The notes: generated by a model from the sequence alone, not told the origin. A stretch of 32,590 bases of DNA from a virus (IMGVR_UViG_2740892422_000012); one strand, 5' to 3'; numbered from the stretch's first letter, positions 1 to 32,590 are shown. Translations and numbers: made by a program.

Positions 1-990
1 TTATGTGGATGAAATGTGGATGCCTCCTTTTAATGGATTAAGTGAAATTGCATCCTGGAGGAAATCAGGAGCGAGGTGCGCATAGGTCATAGTTTGCTGG
101 ATCGTGGCGTGCCCCATAATTCGCTGGAGCGTAAGTATATTTCCTCCATTAATCATAAAGTGAGCAGCAAAGGTATGGCGTAGAACATGTACAGCCTGTC
201 CTTTTGGTAGGTCTGGCTTAACACTGCGAAGCACCTTGCGATATTCTTCATAATTGACGTCAAACAAAAGGCCGGATTTCTTTGTTTTGATCTCACTAAC
301 AACTTCATCAGAGACAGGAATAATTCGAACTTTTCCGTTTTTAGTTTTGTTAAACGTCACGCGATTATTGATGATGTGTTCCGCGCGCAGATTTTTCGCT
401 TCTCCCCATCTCGCCCCAGTACTGAGACAAAGTAGCGTAATCCGCCGAGCATCACCGCTTACTGCATCCAGCAATTTGGCGATTTCTTCCGTAGTGAGGT
501 ACGTCATTTCGGGTGATTTTCGTTTCAAAGAGGGGAGGGCGCGGAGTGGATTTTCTCCGTGAAATTCCCCGGCATTTGCCAGGAGTGTAAACATTCCTCC
601 GAGATCCGACTCATCACGCCGAACAGTAGACTCTTTTACTCCCAAGGATAAGCGGGAGCTTCGATAAGCTGCCATGAAACGAGCATTAATCTGGCTAACC
701 CTTGGATCATTCATTTCTTTGATGATTTTTTTCAATCTGGTTAGAACGCCGTTAGCATATGGCTTATTGCGTCCACCCAATTCCCACCATAACGGAAGCA
801 GATCTGAGAGATGACGTTGCTCTGTTGGCTTTTCAAGCCATTCCTTATCGTGCATGTGGCTGAGAACATAGCGCTCAAAGGCCACTGCATCTGCCTTTTT
901 CTTAAAAATCCGCTGAATCCGACGTCCACTTCGGCCACGCGGTCTAACATCCACTTTATATCGTCCACCATCGAGTGCTTTAATTGCCAT
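1..990 (-). CDS. int: Phage integrase, P2-type tyrosine recombinase
   Basis: ORF 1..1023(-); N-terminus from internal Met (MAIKALDGGRYKVDVRPRGRSGRRIQRIFKKKADAVAFERY) matches recalled P2 Int start, C-terminal region has HVLRHTFA...GHA...Y catalytic pattern. Start moved to ATG at 990 because GGAGGG lies about 7 nt upstream on the minus strand; ATG at 1023 remains possible. Confidence 0.9.
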   Translation of the reverse strand: MAIKALDGGRYKVDVRPRGRSGRRIQRIFKKKADAVAFERYVLSHMHDKEWLEKPTEQRHLSDLLPLWWELGGRNKPYANGVLTRLKKIIKEMNDPRVSQINARFMAAYRSSRLSLGVKESTVRRDESDLGGMFTLLANAGEFHGENPLRALPSLKRKSPEMTYLTTEEIAKLLDAVSGDARRITLLCLSTGARWGEAKNLRAEHIINNRVTFNKTKNGKVRIIPVSDEVVSEIKTKKSGLLFDVNYEEYRKVLRSVKPDLPKGQAVHVLRHTFAAHFMINGGNILTLQRIMGHATIQQTMTYAHLAPDFLQDAISLNPLKGGIHISST

Positions 991-1056
991 TGGCAAGCCC
1001 TCCGGTGAAACGAGGAAAGACATTTCCAGTTTGTAAAACGTAAGAATAATAAAGGG

Positions 1057-1359
1057 TTAACCAATTTTCCTTTCGGATGGGGGTAAATCCGTTGGCTCTT
1101 GCCCATAGTGTGCGAGAGCCGGAGCTATCTGCCCGGATTCAGGCGCAATTTTTCCAGTCATAAACCACAAGGCATATTTTTCGAACCGCGGGCAATTTAA
1201 GATTTTCATCATTACATCCCCTTTGGGTATGGATTCGCCAGTCTCATAACGCCATAGCGCGTTATGCGGAATACCTATTAACTCCGCAGCCTCATTGCGA
1301 CTTGTAATGCGCTCACTTTCACGCATTAGTTTTAGTTTTTCACCAATCTCCAAAATCAT
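1057..1359 (-). CDS. Immunity repressor, P2 C-like HTH protein
   Basis: ORF 1057..1386(-); segment VMMKILNCPRFEKYALWFMTGKIAPESGQIAPALAHYGQ closely resembles recalled P2 C repressor C-terminus; sits between int and a divergent cox-like gene as in P2. Start chosen at internal ATG 1359 (MILEIGEKL) with GGAG upstream; 1386 is an alternative. Confidence 0.75.
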   Translation of the reverse strand: MILEIGEKLKLMRESERITSRNEAAELIGIPHNALWRYETGESIPKGDVMMKILNCPRFEKYALWFMTGKIAPESGQIAPALAHYGQEPTDLPPSERKIG

Positions 1360-1453
1360 ATTGCATTCTCCAAATATGTAGTGCATTATGCAAACAATGA
1401 GTTGAACTATGGGGTAAATATCTCACCTATACCCCAAACAGGGAGATTATCAC
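1360..1453. promoter_or_regulatory. Divergent early promoter/operator region between repressor and cox-like gene
   Basis: 94-bp AT-rich gap between divergent genes; contains dyads TGCAT-T-ATGCA and GGGGTA-N13-TACCCC that could be operators. Position-based inference only. Confidence 0.45.
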
Positions 1454-1780
1454 ATGAATGAAGAACTATTGAGGGCATTGTTTAAGATCCCAGACCCCAT
1501 CACCGTCGATGAATTTGCTCGCCGCACGGGCAAGACCGAATCAGCCGTAAGAAAGTTGGTGGAACGTCGACTCATCCCTCTGGCCACTGAGCGTGAAGTT
1601 TTAGGCGAGGAAGGAAGTTCACGCCGCCTTCTCATCCTATGGAACGAGTGGCTCGAAATGGTCTATGACGCAACGAAACAGCTTCCTCCTGAGCGTAAAG
1701 ATTGGCGCAACCACTGGCTTAATAAAGCCAAGAAGCTGGCGGAAGATTTGGGATTAGGCTTCCTTAATTTTGCTGCATGA
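1454..1780 (+). CDS. Cox/Apl-like excisionase and early regulator (putative)
   Basis: 108-aa ORF transcribed divergently from the repressor, AGGGAG RBS 8 nt upstream of ATG; position matches P2 cox / 186 apl. Sequence similarity to P2 Cox is weak by eye. Confidence 0.5.
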   Translation: MNEELLRALFKIPDPITVDEFARRTGKTESAVRKLVERRLIPLATEREVLGEEGSSRRLLILWNEWLEMVYDATKQLPPERKDWRNHWLNKAKKLAEDLGLGFLNFAA

Positions 1781-1798
1781 GATGCAGGGAGTTTTGAT

Positions 1799-2140
1799 AT
1801 GAAACAGCAACGTAATTCACGCTTTCGTAATGGTGCTGAACGCCACGCTAACCGTTTCGCTACCAGTGCATCACGCAGCAACATCCGCTACAGCCTGAGC
1901 GAAACACACGCAACGCCGGATGGCTACCCAGTAAAACAAATCGGCGAGCACGCCTGGTTGATTGAGAAAGCTGGAATCGTGGTCCACAAATGCCCACACA
2001 ATCCGTTTACCGGAAACCGCATTTTTGCACTAAGCAGCGGCGACAATCAGTTCGGACAGGATTTCACATTGTACGAAGCACTTCGTACAGTTGATCGTCT
2101 GCTTCGCGGACAAAGTTTTATTAAACAGGCTGATTTATAA
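1799..2140 (+). CDS. Hypothetical early protein
   Basis: 113-aa ORF, GGGAG RBS, tightly packed in the early operon. Confidence 0.55.
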   Translation: MKQQRNSRFRNGAERHANRFATSASRSNIRYSLSETHATPDGYPVKQIGEHAWLIEKAGIVVHKCPHNPFTGNRIFALSSGDNQFGQDFTLYEALRTVDRLLRGQSFIKQADL

Positions 2141-2150
2141 CAGGTGCTTT

Positions 2151-2429
2151 ATGACCAAAGAGCATGCACAAGGTGTATTTATCCGTTTTATTGATTTTCG
2201 CGGTGAACTGTTATTACGCGCATCGGCTATTGATGCTGTAGTTCCGGCAGAAAAAGATGTGGCCACTTACCTTTATCTGAACGGCACGCGATTGTTTGTG
2301 GAACTTCCGTACCAGACCGTACGCGAAATCATTAACGAAGCTGAAAAGGCACGTCAGGTTAATGGCGATGAACCATATATCGAAATTATCTGCATGGATT
2401 CAGAAACTGAAATTCAGAAAGCAGATTAA
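2151..2429 (+). CDS. Hypothetical early protein
   Basis: In-frame ATG at 2151 (MTKEHAQG...) chosen over track start 2091, which overlaps the upstream gene; AGGTG 4 nt upstream. Confidence 0.55.
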   Translation: MTKEHAQGVFIRFIDFRGELLLRASAIDAVVPAEKDVATYLYLNGTRLFVELPYQTVREIINEAEKARQVNGDEPYIEIICMDSETEIQKAD

Positions 2430-2440
2430 AGGGCGTTGCG

Positions 2441-2683
2441 ATGGGCAAAGAATATAAAACTCTCATTAACAAAGCACTTGAGCGTTTTTATTTTCGCTTA
2501 AGTGCATCAGGCGCTCATGCTGAACGTGCAGCCCGCGACTCATTGACCAGGGCAATTCGGAGTCTGTATGACGTGGCTTTTTACGCTGATGATCTGGATG
2601 CACTTAACGAACTTTCCGAGCTGATCTGTGCCGCAGAATGCGGGGAACATATTGAACCGTATAAGCTGGGGAATATTGCATGA
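2441..2683 (+). CDS. Hypothetical early protein
   Basis: 80-aa ORF in the same operon; helical, charged composition. Confidence 0.55.
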   Translation: MGKEYKTLINKALERFYFRLSASGAHAERAARDSLTRAIRSLYDVAFYADDLDALNELSELICAAECGEHIEPYKLGNIA

Positions 2684-2793
2684 GTATATTTATCTCATGG
2701 CTTGTTCTGATTATTTCGGTGGCCTGCGCCATTGGGATTATGCGAATTATTAATTCAGTAAAAAAGATTGAACGCTTTTTCACTGGTGAATAA
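2680..2793 (+). CDS. Small hydrophobic membrane peptide (37 aa), putative
   Basis: Not in the ORF track (below its size cut-off). ATG at 2680 overlaps upstream TGA (ATGA coupling); translation MSIFISWLVLIISVACAIGIMRIINSVKKIERFFTGE has one predicted transmembrane helix and a basic tail. Confidence 0.4.
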   Translation: MSIFISWLVLIISVACAIGIMRIINSVKKIERFFTGE

Positions 2794-2879
2794 CAGCGCA
2801 AATAAAACCACAGGTTAAATAAGAAAATGTAAAAACAATCCGCATTCGCGGAGGTATTCGCACACGCCAAGGAGGCGCA

Positions 2880-3083
2880 ATGGCAATTAAGCATTTTCCC
2901 GTCGTTCGTTTCACTTCCAGAGGACGTGAATACGAGGTCGACGAACGCCTGATTACCACAATCGACAAACACCGTTCAGAACAGGATGCACATCACATCT
3001 ATCTCACTGACGGCACTTACTTCTGCGCCACGAATGTGGTGCAGGTGAACCTTATCCGACAGGTACAGGAGTCACGCAGATGA
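2880..3083 (+). CDS. Hypothetical early protein
   Basis: 67-aa ORF with strong RBS AAGGAGG 5-10 nt upstream of ATG. Confidence 0.6.
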   Translation: MAIKHFPVVRFTSRGREYEVDERLITTIDKHRSEQDAHHIYLTDGTYFCATNVVQVNLIRQVQESRR

Positions 3084-3325
3084 CCATTCTGGATTATATC
3101 GCTGCCAATCCGGGGTGTAGCGGTGGAGAAATCGCCGCAGCACTGAATACCCCAACCACAGCCATTAATGCGGAGTTACGCCGACTCTGGCGCAGCGGTT
3201 CAGTCATAAGAAAAGAGCGCAAAACAGGCGGTCGCTTTTCTTACCAGATAAACCCGATGCCGTTCGGGTGCGGCAATCCACTTACCAACATGTTTAACCA
3301 GCTACTGAAGGAAGCCAGAGCATGA
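3080..3325 (+). CDS. Small winged-helix-like DNA-binding protein (putative)
   Basis: 81-aa ORF, ATGA overlap with upstream gene; helical pattern AANPGCSGGEIAAALNTPTTAINAELRRLWRSG suggests an HTH fold. Confidence 0.5.
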   Translation: MTILDYIAANPGCSGGEIAAALNTPTTAINAELRRLWRSGSVIRKERKTGGRFSYQINPMPFGCGNPLTNMFNQLLKEARA

Positions 3326-4251
3326 GCGCCATCAACCACCAGGGATTACGCGAACTGGCAACTGACCTTCAACGAATGGCAACGCATCAAAAATTACTGG
3401 CGTTTCGCGCAATGCTCTCGCCGTCTGCTGTGCTGGCAATGCTGGATGAGCTGGAGCACGCCAGAACCACGGCTCCTGCCATTCGCCTGACACTCCATCA
3501 TGAAATTGCTGATTTCTGCGCGACGTTGGAGGCACCAGGCGAACCGGAAACGCCGGAAGCAATACAGCAAGAGCTGCTGCAACGCATTGACAAGGTTTTT
3601 GATTTTTTTTCTGAACCACTAAGAAACCAGAACATGCACACACAAAAAAACCGCTTGCCATGCCGTAATCAGTCAGGTTACATTTCCGCTGCACCTCATA
3701 AAACGGGTGCCGGGATTCTCAACCCGATACAGAGCAAAGCGCATAACCGCGCCAGCGGTTTTTTTGTGCGTACTGTATTGCCACGTCTTTTTCGCGTCAG
3801 AATTATGGCGGGGCGTACGGGGCCGACTTCGGTCGGGCCGGATTCTTTGCTCTCCGGTGTTGAGAACCCTGTACGTCTCGCCACCCCGAGATTCTCAACT
3901 CTGGATGGTGAGTTATTTCTATCACCGAGCAAAGAGGCCACACCATGGCAAACCGCAAACAGCACCGCGCATACGCTGCGCGTCGTCACATCCAGACTGA
4001 AATCAACCGCAGACTTTCCCGCGCATTCCGCGTCGCTAAAATCATGCACATCAATATGCTGCATGAGCGTAGCTGCGAACTTTCAAACCTCTATTCATCC
4101 GCTGTTTTCAGCTATCTGGCGGATGATCTGCGCGAGCTTCAGCAGCTCTTCCAGCAGCAAAACAAACCCCATTAATTCCTGTTCCGGGCCTTTCCTGCAC
4201 CTTGCGGCGGGAGGCCTTCGCACATCTGTAGTAAAGAGAATTGCAGCATGA
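3322..4251 (+). CDS. Hypothetical protein; only the N-terminal ~100 codons look protein-like, remainder of ORF is doubtful
   Basis: ORF 3322..4251 (309 codons) with GGAAG RBS. After about 3620 the translation becomes low-complexity (S/T/R/A-rich), crosses hairpins and a terminator-like structure, and overlaps the better-supported gene 3945..4175 in another frame. Confidence 0.3.
   Translation: MSAINHQGLRELATDLQRMATHQKLLAFRAMLSPSAVLAMLDELEHARTTAPAIRLTLHHEIADFCATLEAPGEPETPEAIQQELLQRIDKVFDFFSEPLRNQNMHTQKNRLPCRNQSGYISAAPHKTGAGILNPIQSKAHNRASGFFVRTVLPRLFRVRIMAGRTGPTSVGPDSLLSGVENPVRLATPRFSTLDGELFLSPSKEATPWQTANSTAHTLRVVTSRLKSTADFPAHSASLKSCTSICCMSVAANFQTSIHPLFSAIWRMICASFSSSSSSKTNPINSCSGPFLHLAAGGLRTSVVKRIAA
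3746..3766 (+). terminator. Candidate intrinsic terminator (short stem ACCGC/GCGGT, loop GCCA, then T7)
   Basis: Read directly: accgc gcca gcggt followed by ttttttt at 3759-3765. Lies inside the long ORF 3322..4251, which argues against that ORF being translated through here. Confidence 0.35.
3945..4175 (+). CDS. Small basic hypothetical protein (76 aa)
   Basis: AGAGG RBS 7 nt upstream of ATG; translation MANRKQHRAYAARRHIQTEINRRLSRAFRVAKIMHINMLHERS... is arginine-rich and helical. Confidence 0.5.
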   Translation: MANRKQHRAYAARRHIQTEINRRLSRAFRVAKIMHINMLHERSCELSNLYSSAVFSYLADDLRELQQLFQQQNKPH

Positions 4252-4637
4252 TTGACGCTCATGACTTCACAAGATGGGTGCGCACACAGGACACCCGTCT
4301 GGCTCCCGTTCTTCAGGGATTATTTGATCTCTACATCCGTGGTCGTGACAACAGAGCACGCACCACAAAACCGGAGAATGCAGACACCCTTTATTTCACA
4401 GTAGACGACTGCTACCGCGTGGACTTCACACCACACGGGCTGGCGTTGCACTGCCTGACACCACACGGCGAATCACTACTGGCGTATTACGACTCCCCGG
4501 CCTCCGTATTTGCGGCAATGCTGGCGCATCGCACTGCTGGCGGGTGTGCCTCGCTGAGTGAATACACCGCTGAATTTGACCGCCTTTCCGCCATCTTCTC
4601 GCAGGAGTGGCAGCGCGTGACGGGATACCAGCCATGA
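4248..4637 (+). CDS. Hypothetical protein (129 aa), translationally coupled to the replication gene
   Basis: ORF with stop overlapping the downstream ATG (ATGA at 4634-4637). Confidence 0.55.
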   Translation: MIDAHDFTRWVRTQDTRLAPVLQGLFDLYIRGRDNRARTTKPENADTLYFTVDDCYRVDFTPHGLALHCLTPHGESLLAYYDSPASVFAAMLAHRTAGGCASLSEYTAEFDRLSAIFSQEWQRVTGYQP

Positions 4638-7459
4638 GTGAGTTTGCATGGAGCTGGAATGAACCACGACCAGCCATTGATCCGGCCAGATTTACGGAGC
4701 GCAGGCAGGAAACTGAAACCGACTTGCAACGCGCCATCCGTTACTACCTTGAGGCGGACAAAAAGGCCCGGGAAGAACAGGAAGCGAAGGAGGAAGCCTT
4801 TTTCGCACAATCCGCCATGGGTAAAAAACTCATGGCATCCCTTGAGGAAGCCGGACAGCGTGAAAAGCTGGCACAGAGCATCATCAGTAAGCGCCGGGCA
4901 ACAGAACAAGACCCAGTAGCCCGTGCCTTTGCCACACTAAAGGCACTACCTGTTTATCTGCGTGAACCACTGAGCCGCCACCTCTCTTTCCTGCGCAAAA
5001 AACAGGAAGCCGATCGCCAGAAAGGCAAAAAGAGCTGGCAGGCGGAACGCTATGCACGCGGAACCCTGCGCAAAATATTCGAACGTCTAGATCGCACTGA
5101 CGGACGCTGGCTGACACCGGGTTATCGCTCCCTTGCCGGGCGCGAACGCCTGGACGATTTGCTTTACCTGCCGCAGCTCAACAAGCACCAGATACAGACG
5201 CTGGCCACCATGACCGCGGCGATGTTCAGCAGCACCTTCGAAACACTCTGCGATGGCTTTGGTGCCAGAGATGGCGAGCTGACCATGGATGTAATGTTGA
5301 AGGCTTACCGGATGCTGGCTCGTATCGCATTACGCCTGCACATCATGCCGCCACATTACGAAGCCCTGAACAAGAGCGAACCGGATACGGAACTGCTGCC
5401 GGGCGCAATCCTTCGCCTGACCTGTGCGGACTGGTGGAAACGCAAACTGTGGCTGTTACGTTGCGAGTGGAGAGAAGAACAACTCCGCGCCGCCTGTCTG
5501 GTTTCCAGAAAAACATCACCCTATCTGAGCCAGGACGCGTTAAGCGAGTTTCGCGCACAGCGCGAGAAAACACGCGATTTCCTGAAAAGTTTCATGCTGG
5601 AAAATGAAGACGGGTTCACGATTGATCTCGAGACGGTGTATTACGCGGGAGTAAGTAACCCGGTTCACCGTAAGGCAGAAATGATGGCCACCATGAAGGG
5701 ACTGGAACTTCTGGCCGAAGCCCGTGGCGACAGAGCGGTGTTTCTGACTGTCACCTGCCCGTCAAAATACCACGCAACAACGGAGAACGGTCATCCGAAT
5801 CCCAAATGGAACGGGGCCACCATGCGCGACTCCAGCGATTACCTGGTTAACACGTTTTTTGCGGCGGTCCGCAAGAAACTGAACCGCGACGGCCTGCGCT
5901 GGTATGGCATCCGCACGGTGGAGCCTCACCATGACGGCACCGTGCACTGGCATATGATGGTCTTTGCCCATCCGGAAGAAATCGACACCATTGTGTCCCA
6001 CACCCGCGATATTGCCATTCAGGAAGATCGTCACGAGCTGGGCGATGATATTACTCCGCGCTTTAAGGCGGAGTATGTAGACGGCTCAAAAGGCACGCCA
6101 ACCAGCTACATCGCCACCTACATCGGAAAGAACCTGGACAGCCGCGCCGTGGATGGCATCGACCCGAAAACAGGCAAACCACGCGTTGACCACGAAACCG
6201 GAAAATCAATGGCCGAGAGCGTGGAGCGCGCCATCGGCTGGGCGCGCCTTCACCGGGTCCGCCAGTTCCAGTTCTTTGGCATCCCATCCCGTCAGGTGTG
6301 GCGTGAACTGCGCCGCCTTGCCAGCCAGATGGCACGCAACCCGGAAGGCCCGCAACGGCTGAAGGATGACGCAATGGACGCGGTTCTTGCTGCCGCTGAT
6401 GCCGGATGTTTTGCCACCTACATTGAGAAACAGGGCGGCGTACTTGTTCCACGCAAAGACTACCTGATTCGCACCGCCTACGACCTCGCAGATGAGCTGA
6501 ACGATTACGGCGAACAGAGCGTACAGATTTACGGGATCTGGTCACCACTCATCGGGGAATCCTCCCGTGTGTGCACGCACCCGGATAACTGGAAGCTGGT
6601 AAGACGTAAACCGGAAGCGGAAGACAGCACCCGCGAAAATGGTTTTGACCTTCAGGGCGGCCCTGCCGCCCCTTGGACTCGTGGCAATAACTGTCCCCGT
6701 GTACAGGAAGCAGGCAACAGCGGGACAGAACTGTCGGAAGAGCAACCAACACCGTGGCCGCAGATCCCTGACGGCGTTGATGTGGATGAATGGATGCGCT
6801 CACTGAAACGGCACGAACGCCGGGCGCTGATGCGTTCGCTGCGTGACAAACAGGCAAAAAACAGCAGTGATGAAATGCAGAGCTGGACACAGAGCCGCAA
6901 ACAGCAGCGGCCTTTGCCTGATAACCACGAATTACTCGCTAAAGAATGGCGGGAGTCTGCCGAATCTCTCGGCCTGCATATCGGTGAACAGCAGATGCAG
7001 CACCTGTTACGGGGCGGCAGCCTGTACGTTGACGGCAGCATCATTGCACCGCAGGGATTTGAAATTGTACGCAAACCGGATACCCGCCCGGACAGCCGAA
7101 TCACGCAGCTCTGGCAGCGCCTGAGCCGTAATCATGGCGTAAGCAGCACGGAGATCCGCCATAACCCGGTCGCCAGCTATCTGACACAGCTGGGGGCATC
7201 AGACCCTGAAGCCGCCGCACGCCTGGCATCCACACTTCAGCAGGACCAGAACACCATGAAAACCCCCGTTACCGTGCTTTCTGACATGCTGCGCGCCATC
7301 CGTGACGCAGAGCACGCACAGAGAATCAGTGAAACAACTGAACGCGCCCGCCGCAAAGCAGACCTGCTGCGGGGTGGCCTGATCAGTGGAAACAAAAAAC
7401 AGACAGAAACGGGATTCACAAATCCCGTAAATGAGCAAAAAACGTGCCGCGATGTATGA
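4634..7459 (+). CDS. Rolling-circle replication initiator, HUH endonuclease (P2 gene A homolog)
   Basis: Contains the HUH motif VEPHHDGTVHWHMMVFAH; large protein in the position of P2 A. Start set at ATG 4634 (track start 4607 is GTG with RBS too close). About 941 aa, longer than the roughly 760 aa recalled for P2 A. Confidence 0.85.
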   Translation: MSEFAWSWNEPRPAIDPARFTERRQETETDLQRAIRYYLEADKKAREEQEAKEEAFFAQSAMGKKLMASLEEAGQREKLAQSIISKRRATEQDPVARAFATLKALPVYLREPLSRHLSFLRKKQEADRQKGKKSWQAERYARGTLRKIFERLDRTDGRWLTPGYRSLAGRERLDDLLYLPQLNKHQIQTLATMTAAMFSSTFETLCDGFGARDGELTMDVMLKAYRMLARIALRLHIMPPHYEALNKSEPDTELLPGAILRLTCADWWKRKLWLLRCEWREEQLRAACLVSRKTSPYLSQDALSEFRAQREKTRDFLKSFMLENEDGFTIDLETVYYAGVSNPVHRKAEMMATMKGLELLAEARGDRAVFLTVTCPSKYHATTENGHPNPKWNGATMRDSSDYLVNTFFAAVRKKLNRDGLRWYGIRTVEPHHDGTVHWHMMVFAHPEEIDTIVSHTRDIAIQEDRHELGDDITPRFKAEYVDGSKGTPTSYIATYIGKNLDSRAVDGIDPKTGKPRVDHETGKSMAESVERAIGWARLHRVRQFQFFGIPSRQVWRELRRLASQMARNPEGPQRLKDDAMDAVLAAADAGCFATYIEKQGGVLVPRKDYLIRTAYDLADELNDYGEQSVQIYGIWSPLIGESSRVCTHPDNWKLVRRKPEAEDSTRENGFDLQGGPAAPWTRGNNCPRVQEAGNSGTELSEEQPTPWPQIPDGVDVDEWMRSLKRHERRALMRSLRDKQAKNSSDEMQSWTQSRKQQRPLPDNHELLAKEWRESAESLGLHIGEQQMQHLLRGGSLYVDGSIIAPQGFEIVRKPDTRPDSRITQLWQRLSRNHGVSSTEIRHNPVASYLTQLGASDPEAAARLASTLQQDQNTMKTPVTVLSDMLRAIRDAEHAQRISETTERARRKADLLRGGLISGNKKQTETGFTNPVNEQKTCRDV

Positions 7460-7505
7460 AGCGCGCACAAAACAGGCAAAAGCGGGATTCCAGAATCCCG
7501 TAAAC
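7408..7505. promoter_or_regulatory. Two copies of an inverted-repeat site CGGGATT-N4-AATCCCG-TAAA; candidate parC-like centromere/operator or origin element
   Basis: Copies at 7410..7427 and 7483..7500, each within a roughly 37-bp imperfect direct repeat. First copy is inside the 3' end of gene A, second is 35 bp upstream of the parM start. Confidence 0.4.
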
Positions 7506-7535
7506 GGTTAATTAATCAACATAAGGAAAATCGAC

Positions 7536-8495
7536 ATGAAAATTTGTATCGACGACGGCTCCACCAACATCAAGCTGGCATGGACTGAGAACGGCGAACG
7601 CCGCAACGCCATCAGCCCGAACAGCTTCAAGTCGGAATGGTCTGCGCCGTTCGGTGGCTCGCAGCCTGCGAACTACATGCTTGATGGCGTGCGCTATGGT
7701 TTTGATCCGGTCAGCGATCGCTTTGTCCAGACGACCGACACGCAATACCAGTACAGCGATGTGAATGTCATTGCCATTCATCACGCGCTGGTCAAATCAG
7801 GCATCACGCCTCAGGAGGTGGATGTGGTTGTCACCCTGCCACTGAGCGAGTATTTCGACACAAACGCACAGCCAGACATGGCCAACATCAACCGCAAAAA
7901 AGCGAACGTTATGCGCCCGGTGGAGTACCAGAACGGCGAAGCATTCACTATCCGTAACGTGCGGGTTATGCCTGAATCCATTCCGGCTGGTTTTAAGGCA
8001 CTGGCTGACATGAGTCCGTTTGAATCCCTGCTGATTGTGGATTTGGGCGGAACCACGCTGGATGTGGCAAAGGTTCAGGGGCAACTGGCAGGTATCAGCC
8101 AGGTGTTTTGCGATCCACACGTAGGCGTTTCTCTGATGGCTGATGCCGTGCTGTCGGTGATGGCCACTAACGGTATGCGTACCAGTCACCACATCGCCAA
8201 TACCATTATTGAGCACCGTCACGATGAAGCCTGGCTACGCCAGCACATTCACAATGACGCGCATTACAACAGCCTGATGGCGGTTATTCGTGAAAAGGAG
8301 GAAACACTGAAACAACGCGTGATCCGCGCGCTGGCGGGTTTTTCGGGTTACGGGCGGGTGATGGTTGTAGGTGGAGGAGCGGAGATTGTGGCACCCGCTA
8401 TCCGCGAAGCCTGCGGAGTTAATGCGACTTTCATCGCGGACGGGGTGCCACAGTTTGCTCTGGTTAATGGGCTGTACGCAATGGACAAGGAGTAA
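7536..8495 (+). CDS. parM: ParM/StbA-family actin-like segregation ATPase
   Basis: Motifs IDDGSTNIKL, PNSFK, YSDVNVIAIHHAL, VDVVVTLPL, IVDLGGTTLD, VMVVGGGAEI align with recalled plasmid R1 ParM (StbA); AAGGAAAA RBS. Confidence 0.85.
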   Translation: MKICIDDGSTNIKLAWTENGERRNAISPNSFKSEWSAPFGGSQPANYMLDGVRYGFDPVSDRFVQTTDTQYQYSDVNVIAIHHALVKSGITPQEVDVVVTLPLSEYFDTNAQPDMANINRKKANVMRPVEYQNGEAFTIRNVRVMPESIPAGFKALADMSPFESLLIVDLGGTTLDVAKVQGQLAGISQVFCDPHVGVSLMADAVLSVMATNGMRTSHHIANTIIEHRHDEAWLRQHIHNDAHYNSLMAVIREKEETLKQRVIRALAGFSGYGRVMVVGGGAEIVAPAIREACGVNATFIADGVPQFALVNGLYAMDKE

Positions 8496-8499
8496 ATCA

Positions 8500-8814
8500 A
8501 TGACGACACCAACCAGACGGATAAGTTTCTATCTGAAGCCCGCCGTCGTCAAGAGCGAACGGGAGGCGTGCAGTTACCTCGACAGCCTGCCAGCCTCCGA
8601 ACGCAGCCGCGCACAACGCGCGGCTTTTCTGGCCGGACTGGCTCTTATAAAACGCATCCCCGCGTTGGCGTATTCGCTGGCAGAATGGTCAGAAGACGAA
8701 ATAAGGATGCCACCGCTACCAGTACAGCCTGAAAAACCGGCGAAACCAGCAGCAGACAGCGCCCCCCATATGCAGCAGGTGAAGAAGAATATTCAGGCGT
8801 TTTTTCCGAAGTGA
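8500..8814 (+). CDS. parR: ParR/StbB-like ribbon-helix-helix partition adaptor
   Basis: Start ATG 8500, 5 nt after parM stop. N-terminus MTTPTRRISFYLKPAV...LDSLPASERSRAQRAAFLAGLAL parallels recalled R1 ParR (RRTIAFKLNPDV...LDSIPQGERSRLNRAALTAGLAL). Confidence 0.8.
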   Translation: MTTPTRRISFYLKPAVVKSEREACSYLDSLPASERSRAQRAAFLAGLALIKRIPALAYSLAEWSEDEIRMPPLPVQPEKPAKPAADSAPHMQQVKKNIQAFFPK

Positions 8815-8828
8815 AAACAGGAGTAACT

Positions 8829-9116
8829 ATGTCCACCATTACCAAAGAATGGTTACAACGTAAAATCACAGAGTTTAAATCGTGGCGCGAAGACATCCCG
8901 TTCGGTCTTGATGAAGACGATCACAATATGTTAATCGCACTGGAAATCGCACTTGCATCACTGGAAGCAGAGCCAGTGGCATGGATGCACGCAAATAATC
9001 CTATTGGAATACCGGCGATAACAAGAAGTAAAGATGTTGCAGACAGCTGGCGCTCTAAGGGATGGAATGTATTGCCTCTTTATTCACTGACCCGCTCCAT
9101 CAATTTATGCCATTAA
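8829..9116 (+). CDS. Hypothetical protein (95 aa), co-transcribed with parMR
   Basis: ATG 8829 with ACAGGAG RBS (track GTG start 8811 overlaps parR); composition becomes more AT-rich from here, suggesting separately acquired cargo. Confidence 0.5.
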   Translation: MSTITKEWLQRKITEFKSWREDIPFGLDEDDHNMLIALEIALASLEAEPVAWMHANNPIGIPAITRSKDVADSWRSKGWNVLPLYSLTRSINLCH

Positions 9117-9127
9117 TGGAAGTAATC

Positions 9128-9487
9128 ATGATGAAAGATAATTCCGGAAGCCAGCGTGCATCAGTTGCAGTTATGGTAATGATTAAATTTGTGAAACAGT
9201 ACACCGGAAAGCCAACCTCGCTCCGGCAATTAAGCAAAGAAACCGTTTCACTGTCATATCTGGAGCAAATATTCAGATATTTACGGGAAAGTAGCCTGGT
9301 AAAAGCCACACGCGGCCCGGGTGGTGGATATATCCCAACAAAAGAAAATTACAGTGTTGGTGATATTGTCCGGGCAATGAAATGTTCCGGATTATATACA
9401 CAGCACGTTATTCTGGCTGCACTGGATAATATTTCTTTAACCAGCCTGCAGGAAGACACAAATTATCAGTTGTCTGCCATTGAATAA
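9128..9487 (+). CDS. Rrf2-family winged-helix transcriptional regulator, no cysteine cluster
   Basis: Signature VSLSYLEQIFRYLRESSLVKATRGPGGGY matches the Rrf2/IscR DNA-binding motif (compare IscR [29 protein letters not shown] from memory); lacks the three-cysteine Fe-S ligand cluster. Start at ATG 9128 with GGAAG upstream. Confidence 0.75.
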   Translation: MMKDNSGSQRASVAVMVMIKFVKQYTGKPTSLRQLSKETVSLSYLEQIFRYLRESSLVKATRGPGGGYIPTKENYSVGDIVRAMKCSGLYTQHVILAALDNISLTSLQEDTNYQLSAIE

Positions 9488-9492
9488 GAAAA

Positions 9493-9533
9493 CCCGGAAC
9501 GGGTGCGCAAATTCTTTGTGCGCCCGTTCCGGG
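9493..9533. terminator. Long hairpin between convergent genes; intrinsic terminator mainly for the minus-strand transcript
   Basis: 19-bp stem (two G-T wobbles) cccggaacgggtgcgcaaa / tttgtgcgcccgttccggg, loop ttc. On the minus strand it is followed by TTTTCTT; on the plus strand an A-tract precedes it. Confidence 0.6.
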
Positions 9534-9558
9534 TTGGACAAGCGAAGCGCGTCAGCTA

Positions 9559-9813
9559 TCAGGCCTGCAACAACTCCAGAGCCATTTGTTTTTCTTCCGG
9601 ACGCATCCGCTCAATCAACAGCTTTAACACACCATTCTCCAGCCCGCTGGGCACCAGTGTGTGCGAGTAGGTCAGATTCATCACCCAGGTATGTCCGCAC
9701 TCGAGACGGGTGCAACGGTAATACACATCAGCAAACTGATCGGTTTTCCAGGCTGTTTTCTCAATCACTGCATGTGCACCGCAGCAATGACATCGCGCTT
9801 TCTGTCTGCGCAT
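9559..9813 (-). CDS. ogr: Ogr/Delta-family zinc-finger late transcription activator
   Basis: Start at internal ATG 9813 with GGGAGGTGGAAA RBS; product MRRQKARCHCCGAHAV...YYRCTRLECGHTW has a C-x2-C ... C-x4-C zinc-finger arrangement typical of Ogr/Delta. Confidence 0.75.
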   Translation of the reverse strand: MRRQKARCHCCGAHAVIEKTAWKTDQFADVYYRCTRLECGHTWVMNLTYSHTLVPSGLENGVLKLLIERMRPEEKQMALELLQA

Positions 9814-9844
9814 TTTCCACCTCCCGGAACAGCGTTTTACTGCC

Positions 9845-9878
9845 ACCGATTTTACCCGCTCTTTCCCCATACCGCACA
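9845..9878. other. Candidate cos (cohesive end) region
   Basis: Minus-strand sequence GTGCGGTATGGGGAAAGAGCGGG contains GGGGAAAG, resembling the recalled P2/186 cohesive-end core (GGCGAGGCGGGGAAAGCAC); lies just downstream of the portal gene 3' end as in P2. Weak, memory-based. Confidence 0.25.
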
Positions 9879-10913
9879 TCACTCCGTGGATTCGTTAAAT
9901 TCAAGAATAAATTCCACCTGCCCCAGCCGTCTGATATCCGGATCGCTGTTGATCCCCTCCATAATCAGACGGCGCATCGGAATAACCTCATCTCTGTAAT
10001 ATGCCTCGCGGGATTTCAGTGGGTCACCAAGCCCGGCCGTATTTGCGGGAATGATGCCGGCAAGTCCGGGTGGAAAACGGTGCGCAACGAGCTGATCCTG
10101 GGCACTGATGGTTTTTATATTCAGGAACTCATCTTTTGTGCCTGAATCCCCGATAGGGATCACCTTAACGCCTTCTTTGTCTCCGCCCGGTATATTGATA
10201 AACATGGATTTAAAATTGCCCGCCCCTTTTGACGCCTCTATCTTTTTACGGAATTCCGCCTCGAGCTCGGGATCCATGTCCGGGTCAGTGGAATACAGGA
10301 TATAACCAAGATGTGCGCCGTTCTTGTAATACTTGCGGCGAAAGCGGGTGGCATCCACATTCAGCATGGCGGATTCCATCCCGTGAATATAATCCGGGAC
10401 ACCGTAAACCTGCTGTTGCGGGTCATAAATGGCCACGAACACCACTTCGCCTGGCGGGTAAACGAGATCTTCCAGTGCTGCCTGCACAATCACCGTGCCA
10501 CCCTCGTTGTTACGCCGCAGGTACAGAGAAGGTAACGTATGCAGGCGCACCACGCGACCGAAGCCATTGCGCACTTTAAGCAACCCCATATCCCCGAATA
10601 TCAGCAGATTGGTTACTGCTGCCGCCATGGCGGCGTGTGTCATACCACCACCACCCCGAAAACCCTGCATGATCATATTGACGCGCGCACGCAATACCGC
10701 GCCGTGATACGGTGCGATATTGGACAACATGGCGAGATCCATGCGCTCAATTGGCGGCGTGTACCAGCCGTTATAGCCATCCCAGAGCGAGCCGTAATAA
10801 CAGCCCCATGCAGCGACCGGTTCCGGGTCACCAAATTCAATAAACGTCATTTTGCTGGCTGTTTTTTTTGCCACGCCATCGTGTAACACGGGGTATTTTT
10901 TCTTTTTACTCAT
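9879..10913 (-). CDS. Portal protein (P2 gpQ-like)
   Basis: 344-aa ORF, same size and position as P2 Q, upstream of and co-oriented with the large terminase. Confidence 0.85.
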   Translation of the reverse strand: MSKKKKYPVLHDGVAKKTASKMTFIEFGDPEPVAAWGCYYGSLWDGYNGWYTPPIERMDLAMLSNIAPYHGAVLRARVNMIMQGFRGGGGMTHAAMAAAVTNLLIFGDMGLLKVRNGFGRVVRLHTLPSLYLRRNNEGGTVIVQAALEDLVYPPGEVVFVAIYDPQQQVYGVPDYIHGMESAMLNVDATRFRRKYYKNGAHLGYILYSTDPDMDPELEAEFRKKIEASKGAGNFKSMFINIPGGDKEGVKVIPIGDSGTKDEFLNIKTISAQDQLVAHRFPPGLAGIIPANTAGLGDPLKSREAYYRDEVIPMRRLIMEGINSDPDIRRLGQVEFILEFNESTE

Positions 10914-32185: not shown

Positions 32186-32420
32186 CGGAAGCATGTATCA
32201 AATGCGTGACTGAATAATGTCTACGGTCGGGAATTTTATATCAAAAGGCTGACAGGCCTCAACGGATTGAAACAAGGGAAAAAACCAGGCTAGAATTCGC
32301 GCGGGTGCCTTTCGGCTGATGGTCGGAGGGAATACCCGAAGGCCGGATGTGGAAAGGCCCCGGAAAACATTTCTGTTTAACCGAGGCCCTAACATATCTA
32401 CCTTAAGCAAGTGATAGGTT

Positions 32421-32449
32421 AGCGCCTCTCCAACAAAGGAGCAAGCGCT
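32421..32449 (+). promoter_or_regulatory. Hairpin sequestering the hok Shine-Dalgarno sequence
   Basis: agcgc/gcgct and ctcc/ggag pairings place the GGAG Shine-Dalgarno (32438..32441) in a stem directly upstream of the hok ATG. Confidence 0.4.
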
Positions 32450-32590
32450 ATGTCGCAAAAATCGCTTACGGCCATCACGTTCTGCGTGACGGTAATCCTC
32501 ATCATCTGGATGCTGCACGGCTCGCTGTGTGAAATACGGATGAGCTTCTGGGGAGCGGAGTTTGCGGCGTTCTTACAGTGTAAACAGTAA
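32450..32590 (+). CDS. hok: Hok/Gef-family type I toxin (small membrane peptide)
   Basis: Not in the ORF track. 46-aa product MSQKSLTAITFCVTVILIIWMLHGSLCEIRMSFWGAEFAAFLQCKQ has one transmembrane helix and the SLCEIR ... AAFL pattern of Hok-family toxins (closest by eye to HokA). Stop is the last codon of the window. Confidence 0.8.
   Translation: MSQKSLTAITFCVTVILIIWMLHGSLCEIRMSFWGAEFAAFLQCKQ

Follow-up and report, generated by a model that had tools for sequence, protein, structure and literature searches.

This analysis is concerned with a partition module that is located in a P2-like prophage stretch of 32,590 nucleotides (nt), IMGVR_UViG_2740892422_000012, which we refer to in its whole length as the window; all coordinates count from its first letter. 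Between the replication gene gpA and the portal gene, four closely spaced open reading frames (ORFs) are found on the plus strand, encoding in order an actin-like ATPase (ParM), a ribbon-helix-helix (RHH) adaptor (ParR), a protein of 95 amino acids (aa) and an Rrf2-like regulator. An earlier reading of this DNA, made from the sequence alone (the sequence-only reading), had placed these four genes, a pair of palindromes upstream of them and a hairpin downstream of them, and all are present where it had placed them; the close spacing of the genes also stands, but the gaps measure 4, 14 and 11 nt, instead of the 5 to 14 nt that had been given. The position between gpA and the portal gene is that of the known gpA-gpQ hotspot of P2, in agreement with the same reading. 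As is described below, the upstream repeats, parM and parR are predicted to constitute a complete R1-type (type II) ParM/ParR module.

The identity of ParM, already proposed as a ParM-like ATPase, is supported by profile searches: the protein matches Pfam StbA_N (2e-82) and the ParM C-terminal domain (1.4e-68), it aligns end to end with the solved structures of R1 ParM in the PDB (E ~1e-92), and it keeps the phosphate, connect and adenosine motifs (DDGSTNIK, MPESIPAG, DLGGTTLD and GGGAE). It shares 98-99% aa identity with the ParM of P88-like phages, and pairwise comparison of parM gives a nonsynonymous rate (dN) of ~0.005 and a synonymous rate (dS) of ~0.08, with a ratio of ~0.06, values that point to strong purifying selection on the ParMR module.

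ParR, whose gene starts 4 nt after parM, matches PF10784 (Plasmid_stab_B, 7e-24) over residues 6-70, which bears out its earlier assignment, while a profile search of the PDB yields a weak match with the pB171 ParR structure 2JD3 (E 0.01-0.04). In alignments with relatives, residues 1-14 do not vary, two alleles of the RHH body exist, SLPASERSRAQRAAF and SLTPEARKSGQRVAF, and the linker is hypervariable; the palindromes upstream are identical for both alleles, and the recombination breakpoints with relatives fall inside parR, at 8659-8807. The C-terminal tail, NIQAFFPK, conforms to a motif, NI(Q/R/K)x(F/L)FP, that is kept across the phage alleles despite the hypervariable linker and that is also found in the ParR of an IncF plasmid. 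ParR appears, then, to show the pattern expected of a working adaptor.

The paired inverted repeats that had been read upstream of parM are confirmed: the 32.6 kb hold exactly two copies of the pattern CGGGATT-N4-AATCCCG (7410-7427 and 7483-7500), against a chance expectation of 0.07, and two matches were obtained in 0 of 100 shuffles. The first palindrome is ACGGGATT-CACA-AATCCCGT (7409-7428). Each palindrome is located inside a 39-nt direct repeat, the two repeats being 73 nt apart and straddling the gpA stop codon, and the second unit, with palindrome 2, ends 35 nt upstream of the parM ATG. A search of the window for further clusters of ParR half-sites returned none beyond the two palindromes. 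Both repeats are kept in all ParMR-positive relatives and are missing from the ParMR-negative ones; in a Plesiomonas relative with 63% ParM identity, two GCGGGA-containing repeats are located 72 nt apart upstream of parM. The palindromes might also stop antisense transcription that enters gpA from reverse-oriented cargo.

The 3' end of gpA follows the module: its last ~33 codons, which include palindrome 1, co-vary with the presence of parMR, and the length of gpA, 950 aa here, is 785-907 aa in more distant relatives. In relatives without ParMR, divergence from the window sets in at ~7350-7370, and the gpA C-terminus is different; because this point is located just upstream of palindrome 1, the unit that comes and goes would be repeats-parM-parR (7393-8814), a unit that appears to have the layout of a parC-parM-parR cassette. 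The ParM domains, the intact motifs, ParR and the upstream repeats are all in place, and the claim of a complete type II partition module, also made earlier, is in keeping with them.

The module is shared with many relatives. The stretch 7400-8660/8700 is ~94% identical to 14 deposited phage genomes (P88, other Xuanwuvirus-type phages and the Citrobacter phage phiSM), where ParM and a partition protein are already named in the GenBank/RefSeq annotation. Of 5426 complete E. coli genomes, 1303 hold ParMR DNA; gpA adjoins parM in at least 1223 E. coli genomes, among them O104:H4 C227-11 and O157:H7 EC4115. Among the IMG/VR loci that were chosen by ParM, gpA is directly upstream of ParM in 80 of 80, and among those that were chosen by gpA, ParM is found in 62 of the 69 that could be evaluated, always directly after gpA, a figure that the selection may bias, as this set consists of the 80 best matches. 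Seven IMG/VR loci, as well as E. coli FY10 and B2, which were examined separately, have gpA followed by other cargo and are without ParMR.

Beyond E. coli, ParMs of 54-63% identity occur in Plesiomonas, Hafnia, Serratia and Enterobacter, all of them in P2-like prophages and in the order gpA, zero to two small ORFs, parM, parR, cargo, sometimes ogr, and portal. Apart from the upper end of this group, no ParM between 60% and 95% identity is reported, and matches below 53% are located in plasmid contexts or in an integrative and conjugative element (ICE). A recent capture of parMR from a plasmid has been considered and rejected: the genuine plasmid ParMs are all below 60% identity (best ~52%; R1 ParM ~47%, as aligned with MAFFT), and the phage ParMs group together in a neighbour-joining tree (no bootstrap). 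The linkage of gpA with parMR is old, and ParMR is a near-fixed part of the replication module in P88-like phages. The notion that ParMR is an unusual accessory of this prophage is not supported by the 62 of 69 relatives, by the genomes counted above, or by a gene order that is kept down to 54% ParM identity. The sequence-only reading had set against its own proposal the case of a conserved core module with an established replication role; of this, the conservation is found, but the established role is not.

It is only after parR that the hotspot appears to become variable. Between the parR stop and the portal stop, 34 unrelated cargo types of 1.0-4.2 kb are found in 72 loci with both anchors, and the left breakpoints relative to the window fall at 8659-8985, the right ones at the hairpin or at the ogr stop; the variability concerns 8815-9490 and not parMR. 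The earlier question whether the slot varies among related prophages is answered in the affirmative for the part after parR but not for parMR itself, which is stable. The hairpin, which had been given a stem of 19 bp, has a stem of 21 bp (-39.7 kcal/mol, z = -6.65). Since its T-run is on the minus strand and since loci with other cargo have it too, together with the ogr flank, we take it to be the canonical terminator of ogr and the right border of the slot; it is possible that it is also a bidirectional stop for the plus-strand genes. Its proposed function as the closure of a four-gene operon has been rejected, as the hairpin is part of the conserved ogr flank, irrespective of which cargo is present.

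Table 1. Features of the gpA-portal interval and its flanks; coordinates count from the first letter of the window
Feature	Coordinates	Strand	Basis or remark
gpA replication endonuclease, 950 aa	4607..7459	+	Pfam Phage_GPA 3.9e-130; context gene
parC-like repeat unit 1	7393..7431		holds palindrome 7409-7428; overlaps gpA 3' end
parC-like repeat unit 2	7466..7504		holds palindrome CGGGATT-CCAG-AATCCCG (7483-7500)
parM, actin-like segregation ATPase, 319 aa	7536..8495	+	Pfam, PDB match, dN/dS
parR, ribbon-helix-helix adaptor, 104 aa	8500..8814	+	PF10784 7e-24
95-aa cargo protein, Eaa/DUF551-type family	8829..9116	+	phrog_660 and phrog_60
Rrf2/IscR-like winged-helix regulator, 119 aa (123 aa from start 9116)	9128..9487	+	PF02082 5e-13
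hairpin, 21-bp stem	9491..9535		right edge of variable slot
ogr/Delta-type zinc-finger late activator	9559..9756	-	Pfam Ogr_Delta 1.4e-12; RefSeq annotation in E. coli K_EC180 (L001); backbone
portal gene (gpQ equivalent)	9879..10913	-	Pfam Phage_portal; right anchor of hotspot

Starting from the homology, the intact motifs, the purifying selection, the deep conservation of gene order and the chromosomal residence of the prophage, we infer the DNA binding at the palindromes, the timing of expression, the substrate and the benefit. The reading that we favour, and to which we give an even chance of being correct, is that of a working type II segrosome whose substrate is the transient circular phage DNA that follows infection or induction. 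Judged from the homology to R1 ParMRC, ParR dimers would bind the two palindrome-containing repeats around the stop codon of gpA, ATP-ParM filaments would be captured by the conserved ParR tail at the C-terminus, and the growing filaments would push the ParR-bound DNA circles apart. As an integrated prophage needs no segregation, the substrate should be a circular phage genome, most likely the extrachromosomal one that results from rolling-circle replication by gpA; the module would probably act in the transient phase that follows induction, or that follows infection and precedes integration or lysis, and its likely benefit would be the presence of phage DNA in both daughter cells or the spatial organisation of replicating genomes. 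Co-transcription of parMR with the early operon is the simplest reading of the upstream region, because parM starts 76 nt after the end of gpA, no plus-strand terminator is found between the two genes, and a simple consensus scan recognises no sigma-70 promoter upstream of parM, its sole match being located inside the 95-aa gene.

Several points weigh against this proposal. With only two candidate ParR sites, the repeats may serve as an operator and not as a centromere; on the minus strand, each palindrome precedes a T-rich run and has the score of a weak intrinsic terminator. The promoter scan was a simple consensus search and may have missed a promoter active in the prophage state, and the tightly linked downstream cargo might need to be expressed in the lysogen, which would imply expression of ParMR there too. 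About 10% of the relatives with the same gpA have no ParMR, which indicates that the module is dispensable for phage viability, i.e. helpful rather than essential. Finally, the searchable literature gave no functional study of, or experimental data for, the ParMR of P2-like phages.

We hold only tentatively, as a rather doubtful proposition, the broader claim that ParMRC is a working segrosome for a non-integrated P2-family genome and that, separately, the 95-aa protein and the clusterless Rrf2-like protein form an undescribed host-manipulation or defence module. If true, active partitioning could carry the circular genomes of a quarter of the E. coli P2-like prophages through cell divisions, be it in a pseudolysogenic or facultative plasmid phase or by an actin-driven organisation of replication, and no type II partition system would have been shown earlier to function in the life cycle of an integrative Gram-negative phage. 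In several enterobacterial genera, a plasmid-type segregation machine has been retained under strong selection by an integrating rolling-circle phage; the reason for this would clarify how temperate phages handle the span of time between entry or excision and integration or lysis, and would tell how sharply prophages, phage-plasmids and ICEs are set apart from one another.

We consider it unlikely that the element is instead a facultative plasmid prophage, in which ParMRC would keep the repressed genome in the cell as a plasmid of low copy number, for instance where attB is missing, although the module does look like a complete partition cassette and the same idea has been put forward by Rousset et al. 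2022. This dual integrative/plasmid lifestyle, which the sequence-only reading had also suggested, is not favoured by the distribution of the element: two counts of its places in complete E. coli genomes put 1441 of 1443 and 1730 of 1732 on the chromosome, and most matches in the plasmid database are replicons of 227 kb to 1.4 Mb with an integrated copy. PLSDB contains one circular replicon, of 34,461 bp, that comprises a whole P88-like phage (L004, NZ_CP148288.1, from a cat E. coli isolate), but a human isolate of that study carries a 99.9% identical copy integrated in its chromosome (H152, NZ_CP148378.1); this circle may be a stable episome, or it may be a replicative form that has been excised. 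Burkholderia phage KS14, which is P2-like and a proven plasmid prophage with RepB and ParA (PMC3091744), demonstrates that a plasmid lifestyle is compatible with a P2-like virion module. Unlike KS14, which is kept as a plasmid, the window element has an intact integrase, repressor and Cox, is chromosomal in more than 99% of its occurrences and has no plasmid-type initiator in its early region (window 1-9900), where the HUH endonuclease gpA is the sole replication gene. In the repressed state, the gpA operon is presumably shut off by the repressor, following the P2 paradigm.

That the module would act in the integrated prophage in some way other than the segregation of phage DNA strikes us as improbable. 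ParR might act mainly as a transcriptional regulator of the cargo or of the read-through from gpA, or the system might interfere with incoming related phages or plasmids by centromere competition, and the palindromes are indeed located at an operator-like position, 35 nt upstream of parM, with the cargo tightly linked downstream (gaps of 14 and 11 nt); yet a role as a pure regulator does not explain the strong purifying selection on a full-length ATPase, and in many relatives the cargo is on the opposite strand. The two RHH alleles and the hypervariable linker of ParR count in favour of this reading, as does the intact ParMR in the degraded prophages of K_EC180 and O157:H7 EC4115, but cross-talk with resident plasmids is made unlikely by the identity of below 60% of the genuine plasmid ParMs. 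Highly improbable, lastly, is the repurposing of the filament system for anti-phage defence, alone or with the 95-aa and Rrf2-like genes: ParMR is located at the edge of a proven defence hotspot, and the neighbouring slots of relatives hold IetAS, PD-Lambda-5, PDC-S20, RmrA-type and other defence matches, but this earlier suggestion is left without support, as none of the four proteins (ParM, ParR, 95-aa, Rrf2-like) matches PADLOC, the stability of ParMR contrasts with the fast turnover of the adjacent defence cargo (72 loci with 34 types), ParR has its canonical tail, the repeats resemble a centromere, the 95-aa protein belongs to a ubiquitous Eaa/DUF551-type family, and the Rrf2-like protein looks like a plain winged-helix regulator.

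The segrosome reading can be set beside several known systems. The likeness to R1 ParMRC consists in the order of repeats, parM and parR, in the full-length match of ParM and in the Pfam family of ParR; the differences are that the ParMs are ~47% identical and that R1 is a theta-replicating low-copy plasmid, whereas the carrier here is an integrating rolling-circle phage. R1 parC is composed of two blocks of five 11-bp iterons, ten in all, while the candidate centromere of the window has far fewer repeats, i.e. two palindromes of 18-20 bp that are 73 nt apart. The StbA/StbB of D6, a P1-like phage-plasmid, is a ParM/ParR pair 48% identical to that of the window, and the D6 record shows P1-like neighbours. 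The ParM/ParR of P88 and other Xuanwuvirus-type phages is the same module, with ParM 98-99% identical, the same position after gpA and the same palindromes; the 3' half of parR, the downstream cargo and the late module of the window prophage differ from those of P88.

Two systems on integrated elements are precedents that fit an action on a transient circle. The SrpMRC of SXT/R391 is a type II partition system on an element that is normally integrated, and it stabilises the transient, replicating excised circle of the ICE (PMC4489591); SrpMR is only distantly related to R1 ParMR (PMC4489591), its carrier is an ICE and not a phage, and the function that is demonstrated there is inferred for the window module. 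A further ICE-borne pair, with ParM/ParR ~49% identical, is seen in a Dickeya chromosome (L182), beside TraG, TraU and an integrase. In the Corynebacterium prophage CGP3, the AlpAC/alpS system likewise combines an actin-like filament protein with a DNA adaptor in an integrated prophage: it is induced early and is needed for the efficient replication of the circular phage DNA, and its adaptor binds sites upstream of its own operon (PMC4446434). AlpC belongs to another actin-like family and to a Gram-positive host.

The ParMR module and its main interpretation, plasmid maintenance, are already on record, and the module is annotated in public phage genomes. Rousset et al. 2022 described the gpA-gpQ locus of E. 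coli P2-like phages as a hotspot, found a partition system in about a quarter of P2-like phages and proposed plasmid maintenance for it; a paper on a Citrobacter rodentium prophage lists the same gene as a fitness factor. What is added here is that the variable slot begins after parR, that the gpA-parMR linkage is old and that a plasmid state is almost unsupported by the complete genomes.

The two genes that follow parR are best regarded as unrelated cargo of the hotspot. Their GC content is ~43%, compared with 53-58% over parMR, and all four genes occur together in 37 complete E. coli genomes, compared with the 1303 that have parMR; this low GC content and narrow distribution support a separate acquisition, in agreement with the sequence-only reading, which had called both genes more AT-rich and, by their look, separately acquired, and many alternative cargoes are found in relatives. 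The 95-aa protein has no Pfam match; the 274 homologues that were returned, named Eaa, DUF551, hypothetical or, sometimes wrongly, valyl-tRNA synthetase, form a very common family of small proteins in enterobacterial prophages and share the IALASLEAEPVAW motif. Its AlphaFold (AF2) model, a confident one with a predicted local distance difference test score (pLDDT) of 83, consists of a helical hairpin followed by a small alpha/beta unit, and its search yielded no solved-structure match, only matches with uncharacterised phage proteins.

The Rrf2-like protein keeps the GPGGGY motif and matches PF02082 (5e-13) over residues 12-92, so that its assignment to Rrf2 holds; its description as cysteine-less does not, as one cysteine is present. 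In an alignment with IscR-like proteins, it is without the segment of ~26 residues that carries the Fe-S cluster ligands and also without the C-terminal extension, and thus it does not have the cysteine ligands of the IscR/NsrR subgroup. The family is narrow, comprising near-identical copies in E. coli and one homologue of 51% identity in a lambdoid replication region; the other matches are cellular IscR proteins, with 35-45% identity over the winged helix.

In relatives, the same slot holds known or candidate defence systems (IetAS, an AbiL/PARIS-like ATPase, PD-Lambda-5, PDC-S20, an RmrA-type system and PDC-M04A) as well as DUF4760, a PIN-domain protein and Ead/Ea22-like proteins. Defence cargo after gpA or parR is seen in L005 (E. 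coli FY10), L062, L063, L079, L135, L142, L159, L082 and L018; in these loci, the AbiL/PARIS-like ATPase occurs with a small partner, PD-Lambda-5 consists of a methyltransferase and an ATPase, PDC-S20 is a KAP nucleoside triphosphatase, and the RmrA-type protein is paired with a PIN protein. Several of the larger cargo proteins of relatives (487, 351, 280 and 269 aa) are without a Pfam or PADLOC match.

The prophage as a whole is a mosaic of a P88-like early region and a different late module. An integrase, a helix-turn-helix repressor and Cox, all three claimed earlier, are found intact at the left end of the window, and the early region (1820-8659) and the hok end (32279-32590) are the sole parts that align to phage P88 (7058 of 32590 bases, or 22% of the window). 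The ogr gene adjoins the portal gene, the portal is 29% identical to that of P88, and the late and head genes find their best matches in ESSI-2, Yersinia and Vibrio K139-type phages, with an identity of 66-68% that covers less than 45% of the gene length; from these weak matches, the late module (9559-32590) would have no close deposited relative. By genome-wide nucleotide similarity to P88, the window does not fall within the P88-like genus Xuanwuvirus. In the early operon, gpA is preceded by ORFs at 3322-4251 (309 aa) and 4248-4637 (129 aa), neither of which has a Pfam match; at the same position, K_EC180 and P88 carry a gene for an SPFH-domain protein or a lipoprotein, together with a "derepression protein". 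An Rfam scan of 7000-10000 gave nothing meaningful.

Single loci among the relatives add minor observations. A scan of genome contigs for ParM by exact peptide words returned three near-identical loci only. One of these, a contig that is labelled Vagococcus sp. WN89Y (Firmicutes; L013), carries gpA and ParM with 92-97% protein identity to the E. coli phage, and is probably a case of contamination or mislabelling. In O157:H7 EC4115, parMR is kept beside an IS3 insertion and the portal is gone. The prophage of E. coli K_EC180 is 100% identical to the window over 7400-9540; its integrase is frameshifted and its portal-to-tail genes are deleted, while parMR and the two cargo genes are still intact.

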